Below are positions 12,305-57,872 of a stretch of 64,000 nt of DNA, piece after piece. A program made the translations under genes and the position numbers. Location: the NCBI GenBank assembly GCA_002359655.1, contig DENL01000003.1:7418-71417 (forward strand), read 5' to 3'. Source of the stretch: Rickettsiales bacterium UBA2645. Its GTDB lineage: Bacteria > Pseudomonadota > Alphaproteobacteria > Rickettsiales > UBA1997. Each line of letters opens with the position of its first letter. Within the stretch, counting starts at the first letter, position 1. The notes under the pieces were generated by a model. It was not told the DNA's origin and did not search any database. It saw only the letters and a list, made by a program, of their open reading frames with translations.

Positions 12305-12529
12305 ATGAAAAAAATTCGCAACCCTCGCCTATTATTTCCTTTCTTTATGGCGTTGATTATGGCTTTTGTGATGTCGGGATTTATGACTTTAATCAATCGC
12401 GGTTTGATTGAAAATTTCTTTTTCGTATGGATGCACTCATTTGTTTATGCTTTCTTTGTGGCGTTTCCAACTGCTTATTTTGTAGCACCACAAGTACAAA
12501 AATTAGTAAAAAAAATCTGCGAAGCTTAA
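12305..12529 (+). CDS. DUF2798-like small membrane protein
   Basis: 74 aa with two hydrophobic helices (FFMALIMAFVMSGFMTLIN.G ... FFVAFPTAYFVAP). I recall this family as a frequent HxlR neighbour. Confidence 0.6.
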   Translation: MKKIRNPRLLFPFFMALIMAFVMSGFMTLINRGLIENFFFVWMHSFVYAFFVAFPTAYFVAPQVQKLVKKICEA

Positions 12530-15291
12530 ATAATAACTTCAACCAATTTTTCTTCCGCTATCAATTCAATTTTTTTGGCGTTGCAAACATTAGCTAAATC
12601 TTCGACGAATTTTTCAATGCCAACAACCCTTGCAACTCTTACCTTCTCAACAGTTGTTTTCATTGAAATATTTTTTTCTGACTTAAATTTGCGAACTTCA
12701 AAAATCACTTCCAACAATAATTTTCCATCTTCGATTAAACTTTGATCAAAAAATTTCTCATCAAGTTTTGGCCAGTTACCTCTAGCATTTATCGACTGAG
12801 TTTTAGTAAATTCTTCAGCAAAAAGTGCTGAGTAAATTTCGTCACAAATATGCGGAATAAAAGGCGCAAAAAGTTTCAGAATTGTGTTTAAACAAATTTC
12901 TAAAGCTTTGATTGCACTTTGTTGTTTAGCTTGAATTTCTGCTTTTTGTAAATCGCTAAGCTTAGTTCCAACAAGCTTTTCTGCTGCCAAACCGTAAGAG
13001 CGAACTTTGCAAATTTCTAAATAATTGTCGCAAAAATCACGCCAGAAAAATTCTTCAATTGCTTCGCGAGCTTTGGCATATTCAAACTTCTCAAACTCGG
13101 CTGTGGCGCGTTTTACGGTTTCTTGTAAACGACTCAAAATCCAAAGATCTGAAGCTTGCGTAACTTTTGCATCTTCACGCAATAATTCAAAATTCATCGA
13201 AGCAAATTTCGCGGCGTTAAAAAGTTTGGTAATTAATTTTTGGCCGATTTTAAAAACATCTTCAATGTAAGCAGTGTCAGCACCCAAATGCGAAGTTGAA
13301 GCCCAATAGCGCACAATATCTGAACCTTTTTCTTCAATCAGAGAAGTTGGAGTCACCACATTGCCTTTTGATTTACTCATTTTGGTTTTATCGGCAGCTA
13401 AGCACCAGCCCGAGATCATCAAGTTTTTCCACGGCACAGAATTTTGATGCAAAGTCGATTTTACTAAAGTGTAAAAAGCCCAAGTACGAATGATTTCATG
13501 AGCTTGTGGACGAAGATCGGCTGGGAAAAGTTTTTCGTGACGCTGTTGGTCGAAAGAAATTTCAGCAGAAATTCCTTTGCTTGAAAGTTGTGGGCTAATT
13601 GAAGAAGTCGCCCAAGTGTCCATGATGTCAGTTTCAGCTGTAACTTCTGCGCGTGAGTATCCGCGAGGCAAATCAATTGCCGGATCGCAGGGAAGTTGAT
13701 CAACATCTGCAACTAAAATTTTTCCTTCTTCGCCTGCCCGCTTGGAATACCAAACTGGAAAAGCCACACCGAAAAAACGCTGGCGGCTGATACACCAATC
13801 CCATTGCAAACCATCAATCCATTGATCGATGCGCACTTTCATATATTCAGGGAACCAATTGCACTCAGCAGCTTTGGCTTTGAGCAAATCTTTTTTGTCG
13901 AGAATTTTAATAAACCATTGTGGCACTACCAGAATTTCGATTGGCACACCAGAGCGCTCGGCGCATTTCACGGCGCGTTTGATGGTTTCTTGTTTAAGTA
14001 GAATGCTCGAGTTAATACCTTCCCCTTGAGGGAGGGTCGAAGTCGCTTGCGACTTCAAGGCGGGGTTAGATTGCGATGTAACTTCAGATTCGTAACCCCT
14101 CACCGAAGGGCTTAAGCCCTTCGACTCCCCCTCAAGGGGGGAGTGATTAGATCGAGTGTTTTTTAAAGCTTCTATTATTGCTTCTTTAGCTTGTTTAATG
14201 GTTTTGCCAGCTACTAAACTTTCATAAAAATTAAAAAATATTTTCAGATCAACGCATTCGGATTTTTTTAAGTTCCATACTTCAATGATGTTTCCTTTTT
14301 GATAATCATTTGAACCAAATTCTAACTCTGTAAAATCATCAGCAAACTTAAAAGACTGATAGCAAGAAGAAATTCTGCCGTCTTTTTCGATAATTATTCT
14401 TAAATCCAAGTTATGCCTCTTCCACCATCTGATGTCAGTTTCATCACCAAAAGTACAACACATTACCGCGCCAGTTCCTTTATCGAGCTGAACTAAATCG
14501 TCAGGAATAATTTTTACTTTCACGCCAAAAAGTGGCGTGATGGCATTTTGTCCGTGGAGTTTTTTGTAGCGCTCATCTTCCGGGTGAACCATGACAGCAA
14601 CGCAAGCCGGCAATAGCTCGGGACGAGTTGTCATTATTTCAAGTTTTTCGTCTGAACCTTCGATGCCAAATAAGATGTAATTCATTTGGCCTTCAACTTC
14701 TTTGTCTACAAGATCAGCTTGCGCTAGAGCGGTGCGGTCGGAAATGTCCCAGAAAACTGGTTCGAATTTTTTTTCTACTAATTTTTTATTGTAGAGATCA
14801 ACAAAACTCGCTTGCGAAATTTTTTGCGATTCAGGTGAAATCGTTTGATATTTCTGCTTCCAATCAACTGACAAAGCAATTGAGTTAAAGAGAATTTCAA
14901 ATTCTTTTTCCGCGTCATCAACAACTTCGCGACATTTTTTTACAAAAGATCCACGGCCATTTTCTGCCTCAAAAACTCCAGCTTTTTTTTCAATAATTTT
15001 TTCAACTAAACGCTCAGTTGGCAGGCCGTTATCGTCAAAGCCCATCGGGTAGAAAACATCTTTGCCATACATGCGCATGAAACGCGCTACGAAATCAGCC
15101 TGAGAATAAGAGAAAACATGTCCCATATGTAAAACGCCTGAAACTGTAGGAGGCGGAGTGTCGATTACAAAAGTTTGGTTTTTTGGTAAATCGTTTTTGA
15201 AAGCGAAAATTTGTTTTTCTAACCAGTGGTTTTGCCAGAATTTTTCGCGAGCTTTTGGATCATAGCGATCGGGTAGTTTTTTTTCAGACAT
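12526..15291 (-). CDS. valS: Valyl-tRNA synthetase, archaeal/Rickettsia type, carrying an in-frame repeat insertion
   Basis: TPPPTVSGVLHMGHVFSYSQADF, PMGFDDNGLPTE and KMSKSKGNVV class-I motifs; 921 aa. Confidence 0.95.
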   Translation of the reverse strand: MSEKKLPDRYDPKAREKFWQNHWLEKQIFAFKNDLPKNQTFVIDTPPPTVSGVLHMGHVFSYSQADFVARFMRMYGKDVFYPMGFDDNGLPTERLVEKIIEKKAGVFEAENGRGSFVKKCREVVDDAEKEFEILFNSIALSVDWKQKYQTISPESQKISQASFVDLYNKKLVEKKFEPVFWDISDRTALAQADLVDKEVEGQMNYILFGIEGSDEKLEIMTTRPELLPACVAVMVHPEDERYKKLHGQNAITPLFGVKVKIIPDDLVQLDKGTGAVMCCTFGDETDIRWWKRHNLDLRIIIEKDGRISSCYQSFKFADDFTELEFGSNDYQKGNIIEVWNLKKSECVDLKIFFNFYESLVAGKTIKQAKEAIIEALKNTRSNHSPLEGESKGLSPSVRGYESEVTSQSNPALKSQATSTLPQGEGINSSILLKQETIKRAVKCAERSGVPIEILVVPQWFIKILDKKDLLKAKAAECNWFPEYMKVRIDQWIDGLQWDWCISRQRFFGVAFPVWYSKRAGEEGKILVADVDQLPCDPAIDLPRGYSRAEVTAETDIMDTWATSSISPQLSSKGISAEISFDQQRHEKLFPADLRPQAHEIIRTWAFYTLVKSTLHQNSVPWKNLMISGWCLAADKTKMSKSKGNVVTPTSLIEEKGSDIVRYWASTSHLGADTAYIEDVFKIGQKLITKLFNAAKFASMNFELLREDAKVTQASDLWILSRLQETVKRATAEFEKFEYAKAREAIEEFFWRDFCDNYLEICKVRSYGLAAEKLVGTKLSDLQKAEIQAKQQSAIKALEICLNTILKLFAPFIPHICDEIYSALFAEEFTKTQSINARGNWPKLDEKFFDQSLIEDGKLLLEVIFEVRKFKSEKNISMKTTVEKVRVARVVGIEKFVEDLANVCNAKKIELIAEEKLVEVII
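14006..14156. repeat. RPE-like modular palindromic element, copy A (inside valS)
   Basis: GC-rich island with terminal inverted repeats (ctcgagttaataccttccccttgaggg... / ...ccctcaaggggggagtgattagatcgag). It shares modules with 42716-42852, 54380-54527 and 57564-57746. Boundaries are accurate to a few nt. Confidence 0.85.
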
Positions 15292-38073: not shown

Positions 38074-38174
38074 GCAAACTTATTACTTCGCTTAGTGACC
38101 TTCTCAATTTTATTTTTTTAAATTTTTCCTCTGAATTTTTTAAAAAAAATGCCGCAATCTTGCTCAAATAAAAG

Positions 38175-38289
38175 CTGATTTTTTGTAATTTTTGAGTGTA
38201 ATTTGCCTATAGGCTTGGCGCTTTGATTCTAAAGGGTTGAGGACCGTTTCTCTGAATTTTGAACACGTGTTCAAAATTCAGTTTTTTTG
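38175..38289 (+). repeat. 115-bp repeat, copy 2 of 2 (family 2); candidate small-RNA or terminator cassette
   Basis: Same orientation and near-identical sequence to 2874-2988. It lies 100 nt after the ispE stop and 44 nt before the DUF721 gene. Confidence 0.85.
38252..38288 (+). terminator. Rho-independent terminator-like hairpin inside repeat copy 2
   Basis: Identical 30-bp perfect palindrome ctgaattttgaacacgtgttcaaaattcag (38252-38281) followed by TTTTTTT. Confidence 0.7.
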
Positions 38290-38332
38290 TAAAGAATTTT
38301 TGTGAATTAATGCAAACCAATAAAATTAATTT

Positions 38333-41584: not shown

Positions 41585-42280
41585 CTAATTGCTTACAATA
41601 ATTTTTGTTTCTTCTTCAATAATTTTGCCGCCGGCTTCTTTTGCTAAAAGAGTAAATGGTTTATAAAGCTCATAATTTTGATTTTTAAAAATTGCTTTTT
41701 CTAAACGCGAAGAAGCAACATAAGCCAGTTCTAAAGTACGACAGCCGTAAGAGCGCAGCGATTGATTTTTTTCAGTAAGCAAAGATGGTTCTTCGCTAGC
41801 AATCAAAAGTTCACCGCTATTTCTTCTAGAAACGCGAATGCGGCGATTATTAGCATAAGCGCCAAAACCTTTTTCACAGTAGAAAGCTTCACCACCAAAA
41901 ACTTTGCTGATCGCGGCTGAAATTGATTCTTTCTGGCCATTTATAGCGCGATGTTGTAAGGCAACAGCAACTGTAAAATCAGGGTTAGCACGAATTAAAT
42001 TATCGAAACCATCAACTGGGTGAATGATGTAGGAGTATTCAGCATCTTGACTGCGAATTAGATTTTTCTCATCCGAAAAAATTAAGTTATATTCGGGACG
42101 CAATTTTGAAAATTCGTCTGCTAAAACTTGCTTGACACGATTATAACAAGCTGCAGCAAATTTTACGGCAGAAGTTGGATTTGATTGCAAATTTTCTAGT
42201 TCAATAAAATCACGCGGCATGTGAGACGTGGCTTTTTCTATGGCTTTTAGAATGATATTTAGGTTGGCACTATAGCGCAT
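41585..42280 (-). CDS. Inositol monophosphatase-family protein (short)
   Basis: ..YIIHPVDGFDNLIR.. (the DP.DGT.NF-like motif) and overall IMPase-like layout; 231 aa. Confidence 0.7.
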   Translation of the reverse strand: MRYSANLNIILKAIEKATSHMPRDFIELENLQSNPTSAVKFAAACYNRVKQVLADEFSKLRPEYNLIFSDEKNLIRSQDAEYSYIIHPVDGFDNLIRANPDFTVAVALQHRAINGQKESISAAISKVFGGEAFYCEKGFGAYANNRRIRVSRRNSGELLIASEEPSLLTEKNQSLRSYGCRTLELAYVASSRLEKAIFKNQNYELYKPFTLLAKEAGGKIIEEETKIIVSN

Positions 42281-44205
42281 TAGTATTTTCTTGATTGAAG
42301 AGTTAAATTAAGATCAGGAATTGCAGATATGTTTCTCACAGCTTTGAGCGAAAATTCCAGCTTATTTTCTGAAGCATCAGAAATTTTAACCAAACTATGA
42401 GCATGAAAATTTTGATCATCACGATTTTTAAAATCCGAGCGATAGTGAGCCCCACGACTCTCACGACGATTCAAAGCTGCAAAATTTGTTGCTAGAGAAT
42501 TCAAAAAAAGATTTTTCAATTCAAAGTAAGCAACCAACTCTTCATTCCAAATCAGATTTTTATTTTGGATTTTATAGTTTTTAAAAATTGCAAAAAGTTC
42601 TTTGGTTTTTTCAATTCCGCTTTTCAATAATTTTTCTTCGCGAAAAACGCCTAAGTTTTTTTCGTTATTTTCTTGCAAAAGTTTTTTTAGTGTTGGCAAA
42701 ACAGAGATTTTTTCGGCGTAGTAATCCTCTCCTTGAGAGAGGATCGAAGAGCGCAGCGATTCGAGTGGGGGTGTAACTGAAAGTTTTTCACCCCTCACCG
42801 ACTCAGGCAAGCTTAGTCGACTCTCCCTCAAGGGGAGAGTGATCAGATCGAATTTAGTTTTATCTGCATGAGAAAAAATATTTTTCAGTTTTTCAATTTT
42901 TTCAGAAGCGATTTTATCTGAATTTTTAATTGCTTGCTGGGCTATTTTTTCTGCCGCTTTTTTGCCAGCGATCTTACCAAAAACAATTAAATCAAGCAGT
43001 GAGTTGCAACCAAGTCGATTAGCACCATGCACTGAAACACAAGCTGCTTCGCCAATTGCCATCAATCCAGAAATTTCTTTTTCGCCATCAATAACAATAC
43101 AATCAAGATTAGTTGGAATGCCGCCCATTGTGTAATGCGCTGAAGGGCTGACAGGAATCAGATCTTTTTCGACATCAAGACGAGAGAATTTTTTTACCAA
43201 CTCAACAACTCCGGGAAGTTTATTATTTAGGACTTCAGAGCCTAAATGACGTAGATCGAGATTAAGAAAATTTTTATTAACACCAGCTCCACGACCTTCA
43301 AAAATTTCTGTTGCCATGGCTTGCGAAATAACATCGCGCGAAGCCAGCTCCATCATTTTTGGTGCATATCTTTGCATAAAGCGCTCGCCTTCAGAGTTAA
43401 GCAAGTAGCCACCCTCACCTCTTGCAGCTTCTGTTATCAAAAATCCGTAACCATGAATTCCAGTTGGATGAAATTGCACAAACTCCATATCTTGCAAAGC
43501 CAACCCTTCTTCAAAAATAAAAGCTGAACCATCGCCACTACAGATTAAAGATGAGGTAGTATTTTGATAAATTTGGCTGTAGCCACCAGTTGCGAGAATC
43601 ACTATTTTACTTTCAAAAATTATTAACTCGCCAGAATTTAAATCGACTGCTACACAGCCGTGACAACTTGATTTATCTTCAATCAATAGATCGGTGATAA
43701 AAAATTCTGAGAAAAATTTTACGCCATTTTTCAAAGCTTGTTCATACAAAGTGTGCAGAATTGTATGACCTGTTTTATCTTTTGAGTAGCAAGCGCGATA
43801 GGCTATTTCGCCTTGTCCGAAGTTAGTAGTTTGACCGCCATAAGCGCGTTGTGAAATTTTGCCGTCATGACTGCGCGAAAAAACCACGCCCATTTTTTCT
43901 AAATCTAGAATTGATGCTTCAGCTTCACGACAGAGAATTTCAACTGCATCGTTGTCGGCCAAATAATCAGCACCCTTCAAGGTGTCGTAAGCATGCCATT
44001 GCCAATTATCGTTTTTAACATTGCTAAGCGCTGCGTTGATTCCGCCTTTAGCTGAAACTGTGTGACTATTGGTTGGAATGACTTTGCTAATTACAGCAAT
44101 ATTTTTTGCACCAGAATTAATTGCTGAAATCGCTGCCATCAAACCAGCGCCGCCAGATCCAACAATTATTATGTCGAATTGTTTTTTTGAGATTGAAAAA
44201 TCCAC
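42280..44205 (-). CDS. sdhA: Succinate dehydrogenase/fumarate reductase-type flavoprotein subunit, orphan, carrying an in-frame repeat insertion
   Basis: [31 protein letters not shown] (covalent-FAD His context), [38 protein letters not shown]. No sdhB, sdhC or sdhD nearby. Confidence 0.8.
42716..42852. repeat. RPE-like modular palindromic element, copy B (inside the sdhA-like gene)
   Basis: ..taatcctctccttgagagaggatcgaagagcgcagcgattcgag...cccctcaccgactcaggcaagcttagtcgactctccctcaaggggagagtgatcagatcgaa. It shares its left module with copy D and its right module with copies A and D. Confidence 0.85.
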
Positions 44206-53883: not shown

Positions 53884-54417
53884 ATGCAGAAAAAATCAAA
53901 ACCAAAACCAACCTATCGCAAGCGCACTTTAAGCCGACTTATTGCCATTCAAATTTTTTACCAATTTGAGTTTTACGAAAAAAAAATTCCTCTCGCAGAA
54001 GTCAAAAATAATGTCATCGATAATTATGTTCTCGAGCAAGAAGAAACTGTTAGCTCTTATCGCAAAAAAATTGATCTCAATCTTTTAGAAACTTTGCTTG
54101 CTGGCATCAATCTTGGAGTCGAAGAAATTGATCACGATATTTTTGGCCTACTGAAAAGTGGTTGGGATTTAGAAAAACTGCCAGACGTGATGCTATATAT
54201 TCTGCGCCTTGGCGCTTTCGAATTGAAATTTATGCACGACGTTCCGCTGAAAGTTGTTTTGGACGAATATGTCGATATTTCCGCCAGTTTTTTTGAAACA
54301 AAAAAAGTTACCTTCTTAAACGCAACGCTAGAAAATTTAGCCAAACATTATCGCGCTGCAGAATTTGAAAAAGTAAAGAGTCGATCCAATCACTCCCCCC
54401 TTGAGGGGAGAAAATAG
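53884..54417 (+). CDS. nusB: Transcription antitermination factor NusB (C-terminal 10 aa and stop supplied by repeat copy C)
   Basis: RLIAIQIFYQFEF... and ..ILRLGAFEL......P.KVVLDEYV.I...F: NusB fold. The tail RSNHSPLEGRK* is identical to the first residues of the valS insert. Confidence 0.85.
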   Translation: MQKKSKPKPTYRKRTLSRLIAIQIFYQFEFYEKKIPLAEVKNNVIDNYVLEQEETVSSYRKKIDLNLLETLLAGINLGVEEIDHDIFGLLKSGWDLEKLPDVMLYILRLGAFELKFMHDVPLKVVLDEYVDISASFFETKKVTFLNATLENLAKHYRAAEFEKVKSRSNHSPLEGRK

Positions 54418-54527
54418 CCTAAACGGCTATTTTCGGCTTTTAAGATACTCGAGGGTTTTGTAATAAACCCCTCCTCGAATCGCTGCGCTCTTCGATCCTC
54501 CCTCAGGGGGAGGATAATTAGATCGAG
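54380..54527. repeat. RPE-like modular palindromic element, copy C (nusB 3' end and nusB-rimM spacer)
   Basis: tcgatccaatcactccccccttgaggggag + hairpin aaaatagcc-taaac-ggctatttt + ...cccctcctcgaatcgctgcgctcttcgatcctccctcagggggaggataattagatcgag. Its reverse complement matches 57564 to about 57685. Confidence 0.85.
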
Positions 54528-54560
54528 CATATTATTACAAATTAGAAAACAGGATAAAAA

Positions 54561-57396: not shown

Positions 57397-57563
57397 GATA
57401 AGAATTTATTTTTGATTTTGTAGGGCGAGAAGTGGTTTTATTTCTTTAGTCTAGTCGCCGCAAAAAAGATTATCTTATTTTTTTTTGCAAGAAATTTTTA
57501 CTGCGGAATTTTTGAGAAATGACGAGGGAGTTTTGCATAGCCTGCATATGAAAAATAAGAAAG

Positions 57564-57746
57564 CTCGATCTAATCATCCTCCCCCTGAGGGAGGATCGAA
57601 GAGCGCAGCGATTCGAGGAGGGGTTTATTACAAAAGCCTCGAGTACCTTAAAGGACGAAAATAGCCGTTTAGGCTATTTTCTCCCCTCACCGACTCAACC
57701 GAAGGTTTCGTCGACTCTCCCTCAAGGGGAGAGTGATTAGATCTAG
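57564..57746. repeat. RPE-like modular palindromic element, copy D (intergenic, composite L+M+R)
   Basis: ctcgatctaatcatcctccccctgagggaggatcgaagagcgcagcgattcgaggaggggt...gaaaatagccgtttaggctattttctcccctcaccgactcaaccgaaggtttcgtcgactctccctcaaggggagagtgattagatctag. Confidence 0.85.
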
Positions 57747-57872
57747 TTTTGTTATTTTTAATGAAAGACCTAGGGAGTTTTGCAGAATTTAAAAACTTTT
57801 AATCTCAATCAAGCTTTTGATTTAGGCCGTTTTTAAAAATCACCTTGCAAAAATACTACGAGACAACAATTT

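Follow-up and report, generated by a model that had tools for sequence, protein, structure and literature searches.

The stretch of DNA examined here, 64,000 nucleotides (nt) of contig DENL01000003.1 from Rickettsiales bacterium UBA2645 (hereafter the window), carries sdhA, the gene for the flavoprotein of succinate dehydrogenase, and inside this gene a GC-rich palindromic element of 135 nt lies in frame with its host. Its conceptual translation is exactly the 45-residue peptide that had been quoted in an earlier, sequence-only reading of the window. The element, which we call copy B, is one of four GC-rich copies of 135–185 nt that repeat finding, alignment and pattern searches recover from the window; the other three lie in frame in valS (copy A), across the 3' end of nusB (copy C) and between genes (copy D). 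The family membership of copy B, already proposed in the sequence-only reading, is confirmed by its DNA homology to A, C and D and by a pattern for the terminal module, which matches five times in the window with zero matches expected in shuffles. The nearest relatives of the host are freshwater metagenome-assembled genomes (MAGs) labelled Rickettsiales bacterium. Copy B is a decayed copy of this dispersed hairpin element, compatible with the open reading frame (ORF) of its host, and it sits in a hypervariable loop of SdhA.

All elements share the same build, in which two inverted arms flank a variable centre, and it is the centre that differs among A, B and C/D. An arm runs from the terminal repeat CTCGATCTAATCA through hairpin 1 (CYCYCCCC-TTGA-GGGRGRG) and a second hairpin to a G-box, GGTGAGGGG, which pairs with the C-box of the other arm; the terminal motifs of the two arms form the pair CTCGATCTAATCA / TGATTAGATCGAG. 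Copies C and D are 96% identical across 127 nt, the arms of B are 86–89% identical to those of D, and A is the most diverged copy. The two arms of the full-length copy D are 82% complementary. In the left arm of B hairpin 1 reads CACTCTCCCC-TTGA-GGGAGAGTG and hairpin 2 reads GTCGACT...AGTCGG, and the right terminal repeat has degenerated to GGATTACTAC in place of GGATGATTAGATC, a TAG having become TAC. With 52% G+C copy B stands out from the 35.7% of the window as a whole, and it is predicted to fold at -57 to -61 kcal/mol (z = -4.9 / -5.7). When 160 distinct half-modules from all fetched DNA are compared, hairpin 1 is 97–100% paired, with compensatory changes at four of its eight pairs (123 T-A against 32 C-G at pair 10-26; 115 C-G against 42 T-A at pair 12-24), which argues that the thing conserved is a nucleic-acid hairpin and not a peptide. 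No Rfam family matches the element; the sub-threshold matches of plant and animal miRNA models in Rfam to the long hairpins were rejected as spurious, and a role of the central hairpin of C/D as an intrinsic terminator was set aside when a terminator scan did not call it. We also note a GANTC site (GAGTC/GAATC, CcrM/HinfI-type) at the junction of hairpins 1 and 2 in most arms of all lineages (in the window at 42816-42822 and 57711-57717), with GATC instead in some variants.

The sequence-only reading held that the element is read in sdhA in a different frame from that used in valS and nusB, and this turns out to be true of its left part. In valS and nusB the left module reads TCT AAT CAC TCC CCC CTT GAG GGG, giving SNHSPLEG as had been stated, and in sdhA it reads GAT CTG ATC ACT CTC CCC TTG AGG, giving DLITLPLR. 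A codon-phase map laid on the nucleotide alignment puts the offset at 1 nt and follows it from the left end to the hairpin-2 loop, a distance of ~60 nt (DLITLPLRE vs SNHSPLEG). Within this loop a 1-nt length difference brings B into the same phase as A, and from TCGGTGAGGGG (SVRG) to the right end valS and sdhA share their phase (SVRG ... S(T/I)L(P/S)QGE(G/D)), ending in LPQGEG in valS and LSQGED in sdhA. Over about 55% of the element the frame in sdhA agrees with that in valS. The alignment of A against B, which had been named as a check that could overturn the frame claim, gives a split answer, with the left part out of phase and the right part in phase.

A second claim, that the element is stop-free in at least two frames, applies to the terminal module of ~27 nt, which is open in two frames and has TAA and TGA in the third, and to no whole copy in the window. 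In six-frame tables A is open in frame 0 only and B in frame 1 only, C ends NusB after SNHSPLEGRK*, and D is closed throughout; none of the four is open over its whole length in two frames. In the consensus, frame 1 meets the TGA of GGTGAGGGG, and the usual exit frame meets the TAG of the right repeat (GAT TAG ATC). Copy B bypasses the TGA through the 1-nt length difference just upstream and has TAC for the TAG, and copy A carries ATT AAC where the consensus has this TAG.

A strict pattern scan of metagenome contigs gave 39 freshwater loci, and the window together with related contigs provides 25 complete short copies. Fourteen of these are closed in all six frames, nine are open in one frame, one in two and one in three. 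Each intragenic copy is open in the frame used by its host gene, while most intergenic copies are closed. In relatives, short copies within long ORFs (ValS in L146 and L131, where the prefix L denotes a locus; Eco57I-like methylase/restriction ORFs in L121, L152 and L157; and others) enter in frame 0 (SNH[S/P]PLEG...) and exit as STLPQGEG, and the TAG has been replaced differently in each (DGTE, DLKF, NTPS, DLDR, DLVP, DKIE); the sdhA copy is the sole one that enters in frame 1. A survival filter explains this frame distribution and the lost stops, and the suggestion that only ORF-compatible insertions survive is well supported by the comparison of intragenic with intergenic copies. Less survives of the suggestion that the element has evolved to be translation-tolerant: the youngest copies in this genome, C and D, have no frame open, and some support comes from the level of the superfamily, where the C-run/G-run hairpin arms are intrinsically open in two frames and long forms carrying a DUF559 domain, described below, read through both arms in four host genes. 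For the short forms, the sequence comparison supports a selection filter as the likelier explanation, ahead of any designed translatability. Separately, a copy close to the consensus (L128:950-1124), immediately upstream of the gene for an RluB-like pseudouridine synthase, is open end to end in frame 1 (...SLKGRVIRS), so a fully open path exists in some unmutated copies.

The earlier placement of the insert in the helical region of the flavoprotein is borne out, as its 45 codons fall into a loop at the start of the helical domain. SdhA of the window (641 amino acids, aa) finds complex II flavoproteins as its PDB homologues at E ~1e-160. In 120 homologues the median length of the loop (reference residues 440-506) is 20 aa, with extremes of 15 and 108 aa; insert-free homologues are 590-592 aa long, and many relatives have unrelated extra sequence at the same place. 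Among these 120 nearest homologues the B insert occurs in the exact-species SdhA cluster only. The nearest orthologue (P0002/L166, 77% identity) has an insert of 29 aa, which we considered as a decayed B and ruled out, as it has no nucleotide homology to B; with no homologous insert in the nearest orthologue, B is lineage-specific and the site is a hot spot. Loop peptide signatures of at least three other palindromic families are found in the 120 homologues (Table 1), and three orthologues with the synteny fabF-GT2-sdhA-suhB-obg have GC-rich inserts there, which comprise 72, 67 and 28 codons, with folding z-scores of -5.3, -12.9 and -4.3, respectively. The SdhA loop would then have taken up, independently and in related lineages, at least four unrelated hairpin elements with B included, and it offers a natural map of the tolerance of complex II to insertion.

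Modelling of the flavoprotein together with its insert, another check named at the outset, was performed with AlphaFold2. The model built from the 120-sequence alignment has a predicted local distance difference test score (pLDDT) of 78.9 and a predicted TM-score (pTM) of 0.83, replaces an earlier one from a 25-sequence alignment (pLDDT 53), and superposes on complex II flavoproteins with TM-scores of 0.78-0.86. Residues 449-499 are predicted as a coil with pLDDT <50, lying between two helices of the helical domain (430-441 and 493-500) that are modelled with confidence. The open frame and the model give good support to the view that the insert is translated as a disordered loop and probably tolerated as a passenger.

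The valS insert occupies the same codon (...EALKNTR|SNH...) in the window, in L146 and in L131, whose ValS proteins are 77-85% identical, and is therefore old and stably tolerated. The alignment to ValRS of T. thermophilus (1GAX) resumes exactly where the insert of copy A ends. In nusB, copy C provides the last ~12 codons (SRSNHSPLEGRK) together with the TAG stop at 54415-54417; since the NusB domain in Pfam is complete at residue 154, the copy adds only a tail of ~12 residues and the stop codon.

Table 1. Elements, host genes and related features (positions refer to the window unless preceded by a locus)
Feature	Position	Strand	Description
Copy B, decayed palindromic element	42716..42852	-	In frame in sdhA, 45 codons, SdhA residues 452-496
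Left arm of B	42791..42852	-	Terminal repeat TTCGATCTGATCA, hairpin 1, hairpin 2, G-box GTGAGGGG
Variable centre of B	42775..42790	-	"Cargo" slot, short in B; from nucleotide alignment of copies
Right arm of B	42716..42774	-	C-box, hairpin 2', hairpin 1', degenerate terminal repeat; 86% to copy D
sdhA, host of B	42280..44205	-	Succinate dehydrogenase flavoprotein, 641 aa; Pfam FAD_binding_2 + Succ_DH_flav_C
Copy A	14003-14157	-	In frame in valS, residues ~379-430; open in frame 0 only
valS, host of A	12526..15291	-	Class I aminoacyl-tRNA synthetase, 921 aa; Pfam tRNA-synt_1 + Anticodon_1; best PDB match ValRS 1GAX
Copy C	54379-54533	+	Overlaps nusB 3' end
nusB, host of C	53884..54417	+	177 aa; Pfam NusB residues 17-154, profile positions 3-133 of 133
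Copy D	57563-57747	-	Full-length, intergenic; 55-nt inverted terminal arms; stops in 6/6 frames
SdhA loop signature VQDD...RHPEL			13 proteins
SdhA loop signature SFDGVT...PSNDGV			8 proteins
SdhA loop signature LDPRLRGDD			4 proteins
Orthologous sdhA genes	L160:1501-3525, L161:1501-3492, L162:1501-3369		Unrelated hairpin elements in the same loop
Arm-DUF559-arm in ValS	L131:853-4122	-	Freshwater metagenome contig, no MAG label; same codon as window copy A
Arm-DUF559-arm in HsdS	L031:6263-7999	-	MAG labelled Nitrospira
Arm-DUF559-arm in PrmA	L115:1737-3197	-	MAG labelled Melainabacteria
Arm-DUF559-arm in Peptidase_M14	L105:4487-5596	-	MAG labelled rumen

The ValS insert of L131 is a long form of the element, in which a DUF559 domain (PF04480, E 1e-39) lies between the arms and in frame with ValS. 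A tblastn search with this domain against the ~160 loci that we fetched gave seven matches, six of which are located between the arms or within ~100 nt of them, and Pfam finds the arm-DUF559-arm arrangement in frame in four host genes (Table 1). In each long form DUF559 is placed exactly between G-box and C-box. Three of the four (L115, L105 and L131) are entered in frame 0 (YPPLEGGSK), and L031, along with many DUF559 proteins of sponge symbionts, is entered in frame 1 (ITPPLRGSRQ), as is copy B; all long forms exit in the (L/P)PQG(E/G) frame. In the 120 best DUF559 homologues of a 5.8-billion-protein search, the N- and C-terminal tails contain 0.91 arm-type peptides per 100 aa, as against 0.00 in the DUF559 cores and 0.00 in 71,864 aa of SdhA. 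Hairpins of this kind also lie on both sides of two free-standing DUF559 genes, which come from other lineages. The DUF559 core of L131 matches 3HRL at E 1e-28 and, weakly, I-Bth0305I (3R3P, E 0.6), and DUF559 has been assigned the Vsr-like PD-(D/E)xK fold and grouped with Vsr and the EDxHD homing endonuclease I-Bth0305I (PMC3424549, PMC3384342). Our literature search found no publication that ties DUF559 to palindromic repeats or to in-frame residence, and the link between DUF559 and the arms appears to be new to the literature searched.

The arms are widely distributed. Among the matches listed, a loose arm pattern turns up in MAGs whose labels span many phyla, and the arm ATCACTCCCCCCTTGAGGGGGAGTCG-[hairpin]-CGGTGGGGGG is abundant in MAGs of sponge symbionts (Versatilivorator, Poriferihabitaceae, Latescibacterota, Nitrospirales and Acidobacteria) and is also found in Afipia, Methylocystis and others. 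As this distribution comes from a contig scan (L002-L120) it is a lower bound, and the true spread is wider. Three further observations were made on these loci. Both the element family and DUF559 cassettes are present in lake MAGs titled 'Rickettsia typhi isolate ...' (L027, L060, L079), titles that appear to mislabel freshwater Rickettsiales-like bacteria. In a free-standing cassette (L163:1170-1590) the 3' arms of the hairpins supply a GGAGG only a few bases ahead of two start codons, the ATG of DUF559 and that of the downstream gene, and these hairpins may double as ribosome-binding sites. In L131 the right arm is duplicated as three tandem 48-nt units (PQGEGDLKFALQADAR), so arms can amplify locally.

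We consider it probable that copy B is a tolerated, translated passenger from a family of hairpin repeats and, with less confidence, that this family is the short form of the DUF559 cassette and that the nuclease is the agent of its spread. On this account the insert would be translated as a disordered surface loop of ~45 residues, a tolerated passenger rather than a functional module. The phase of the left arm could go back to a landing in a different codon phase or to a later pair of compensating indels; the 1-nt difference in the hairpin-2 loop would restore the usual phase ahead of the TGA of GGTGAGGGG, the change of TAG to TAC would open the right end, and purifying selection on the essential sdhA would have kept only an ORF-compatible version. 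The family itself would be the cargo-less short form of a hairpin-bracketed cassette that carries DUF559 in relatives and in other phyla, with the DUF559 nuclease as the most likely spreading agent, acting via cleavage and repair-mediated copying. The shared arms give moderate support to this origin and to the nuclease as the mobilising activity.

Several points weigh against this account. Translation and neutrality of the insert are deduced from the integrity of the ORF and from structure prediction. For copy B neither a target-site duplication nor an empty site was identified. There is no DUF559 gene within the 64-kb window, and the centre of the valS copy A has no detectable DUF559 remnant. 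Finally, the loci were chosen by arm pattern, and the frequencies reported above are not genome-wide rates.

The closest likeness by description is to the Rickettsia palindromic elements (RPEs), families described by Ogata et al. 2000, 2002 and summarised in PMC2229807 and PMC10969869. According to these summaries, RPE-1 to RPE-10 are, like the elements described here, palindromic repeats (100-190 nt) with terminal inverted repeats, residing in an AT-rich alphaproteobacterial host with a probably small genome. They lie between genes and in frame in conserved housekeeping genes (in the window, sdhA and valS, the 3' end of nusB and one intergenic site), the segment they encode is at a tolerant surface position (for copy B, a predicted coil at a length-variable site), and one frame dominates among the gene-borne copies. 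The element may be called RPE/MITE-like in behaviour and anatomy (MITE, miniature inverted-repeat transposable element), a likeness of description. It differs from RPEs in that its host is an uncultured freshwater lineage outside the genus Rickettsia and that its arms are common to elements in many phyla and bracket DUF559; no such partner, and no mobilising gene for the coding palindromes, is reported for RPEs in these two sources. The association of DUF559 with the arms provides a candidate for such a gene, and with it a directly testable idea of how coding palindromes arise and spread.

A bolder version of our account would make the inserts of sdhA, valS and nusB the empty shells of an undescribed, cross-phylum selfish element consisting of a DUF559 gene and two composite hairpin arms, open throughout. 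We regard this as a serious contender, though one that we do not quite lean towards. The DUF559 cassette could then live in frame in essential proteins without an intein or an intron, and its decay would leave 'protein-coding palindromes'. If this is true, RPE-like coding repeats gain a concrete parent and a mobilising enzyme.

The reverse order of events is possible, albeit tentative: the short repeat would be primary, and DUF559, as a homing gene, would invade its centre secondarily, the many copies of the repeat acting as its homing sites, so that long forms would be 'occupied' alleles and not parents. The orthologous codon of ValS has the short form in two lineages and the long form in one, DUF559 always sits precisely between the two boxes, the bare centre of copy A is as expected, and Vsr-like EDxHD enzymes are known homing endonucleases (PMC3384342). 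The long forms do resemble Vsr-like/EDxHD homing endonucleases (I-Bth0305I; PMC3239194, PMC3384342) and inteins, with a nuclease gene in a host gene whose frame is kept and the same site occupied or empty in related lineages. Unlike inteins and introns, however, the nuclease domain would stay in the host protein, and the flanks are nucleic-acid hairpins. Pfam gives only DUF559/MTES_1575 and host domains in the long forms, with no Hint/intein domain, their junction residues are not intein-like, and Rfam finds no intron in L093, L060, L113, L033 and L045. Secondary invasion leaves unexplained how the short repeat reaches new sites, sdhA among them.

We think it unlikely that the elements are classical MITEs, that is, deletion derivatives of an insertion sequence (IS) moved in trans by a transposase, with DUF559 as occasional cargo or a neighbour at the same site. 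Their small size, inverted terminal arms of 30-55 nt, dispersed copies and variable centre, including non-coding forms of 290-380 bp, would suit such an origin, and TA-like dinucleotides flank some copies (L056). However, no transposase was seen between or next to the arms in the ~160 fetched loci, and thus no autonomous IS, DUF559 being the sole recurrent cargo; a consistent target-site duplication was not found when the flanks of A-D, L056, L060 and L115 were inspected; and the arms accompany DUF559 across many phyla among the matches listed. MITEs that fuse to host ORFs are known (Correia/NEMIS 107-bp, ERIC/IRU and YPAL; Delihas 2008, PMC2229807), and they are similarly small, non-autonomous repeats with long stem-loops. 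In these families short forms that are open in one or two frames fuse to ORFs and longer ones, closed by stops in every frame, remain between genes, much as A and B differ from C and D, and the use of two frames by one family has been described for the Correia 107-bp form (PMC2229807). Unlike the elements studied here, they are tied to IS-type transposition by TA duplications and by transposase partners or candidates (PMC2229807).

Other repeat classes are more distant. CcrM-associated intergenic repeats (CIRs) of Caulobacter and Brucella, compared here by description, are alphaproteobacterial repeats with GANTC sites in their stem-loops, as here, but they are reported to occur exclusively between genes, to have stops in every frame and to lack pairing of 5' and 3' ends (PMC2229807). 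The elements of the window are composite, measure 135-185 nt, and two of the four are intragenic. By contrast, repetitive extragenic palindromes and bacterial interspersed mosaic elements (REP/BIME) are imperfect palindromes of 20-40 bp with a GTAG/CGTC head, strictly extragenic and served by a REP-associated tyrosine transposase (RAYT). The GC-rich palindromic clusters of yeast mitochondria are mobile and can sit in frame in var1. They may serve as an analogy, being likewise hairpins of high GC content in an AT-rich genome that in some cases lengthen a protein and recur at preferred sites; they are shorter and belong to a different compartment, so the comparison is one of analogy alone.

That the insert was recruited for a function of SdhA, be it binding of an assembly factor or partner or regulation through the mRNA hairpin, and is kept by selection on its own sequence, seems very unlikely. 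In favour of this idea, an essential gene still contains the insert in frame, the valS copy persists at one codon in proteins that differ as much as stated above, and an RPE-bearing guanylate kinase of Rickettsia is active, with altered affinity (PMC2229807). Against these stand the other SdhA orthologues, all of which have unrelated sequence or nothing at the site, the predicted disorder of the insert and the covariation, which keeps a hairpin of nucleic acid and not a peptide. Even less credence is due to the idea that the insert goes untranslated, either because it is cut out of the mRNA or because ribosomes bypass it. The GC-rich 'byp' palindromes in the mitochondria of Magnusiomyces are a model for ribosome bypass, and the very stable hairpin of copy B joins the two host junctions; yet skipping would need no open frame, the intragenic copies are open in the host frame and most intergenic ones closed, the length of the insert is a multiple of three, and it is the consensus stops that have been lost. 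An error of assembly or binning that joined a repeat into sdhA hardly deserves consideration, even though the sequence comes from a MAG and misassembly classically happens at repeats, because the identical 641-aa protein is found on six contigs from separate assemblies (NCBI, ENA, Logan), its ORF is intact and in frame on both sides, and the same phenomenon recurs in valS of three independent assemblies.

As first described, the sdhA insert was an ordinary case, one more palindromic repeat surviving inside protein-coding genes, a phenomenon known since 2000. Copy B now provides an example at the nucleotide level of how an insert turns ORF-compatible, by a 1-nt phase switch ahead of a TGA and the loss of a terminal TAG. 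The DUF559 association, which also bears on the function of this very common, uncharacterised family, and the SdhA hot spot lift the finding beyond its first description and make it worth following up.

Two other repeats in the window were noted in passing. An intergenic pair of 138-nt repeats (2862-2999 and 38163-38300) is 91% identical, each member containing a perfect 30-nt palindrome, CTGAATTTTGAACACGTGTTCAAAATTCAG, followed by a T run; a terminator, an operator and a further small mobile element are all conceivable readings. Close to the end of the window, an ORF of more than 680 aa starts at ~61781 on the + strand and runs past the window end, and between 62006 and 62785 it holds at least six tandem 99-nt units that encode 33-residue repeats (..LAKSWLEKQGNNLDLDSLKEVLxLINGDxEKYF..).

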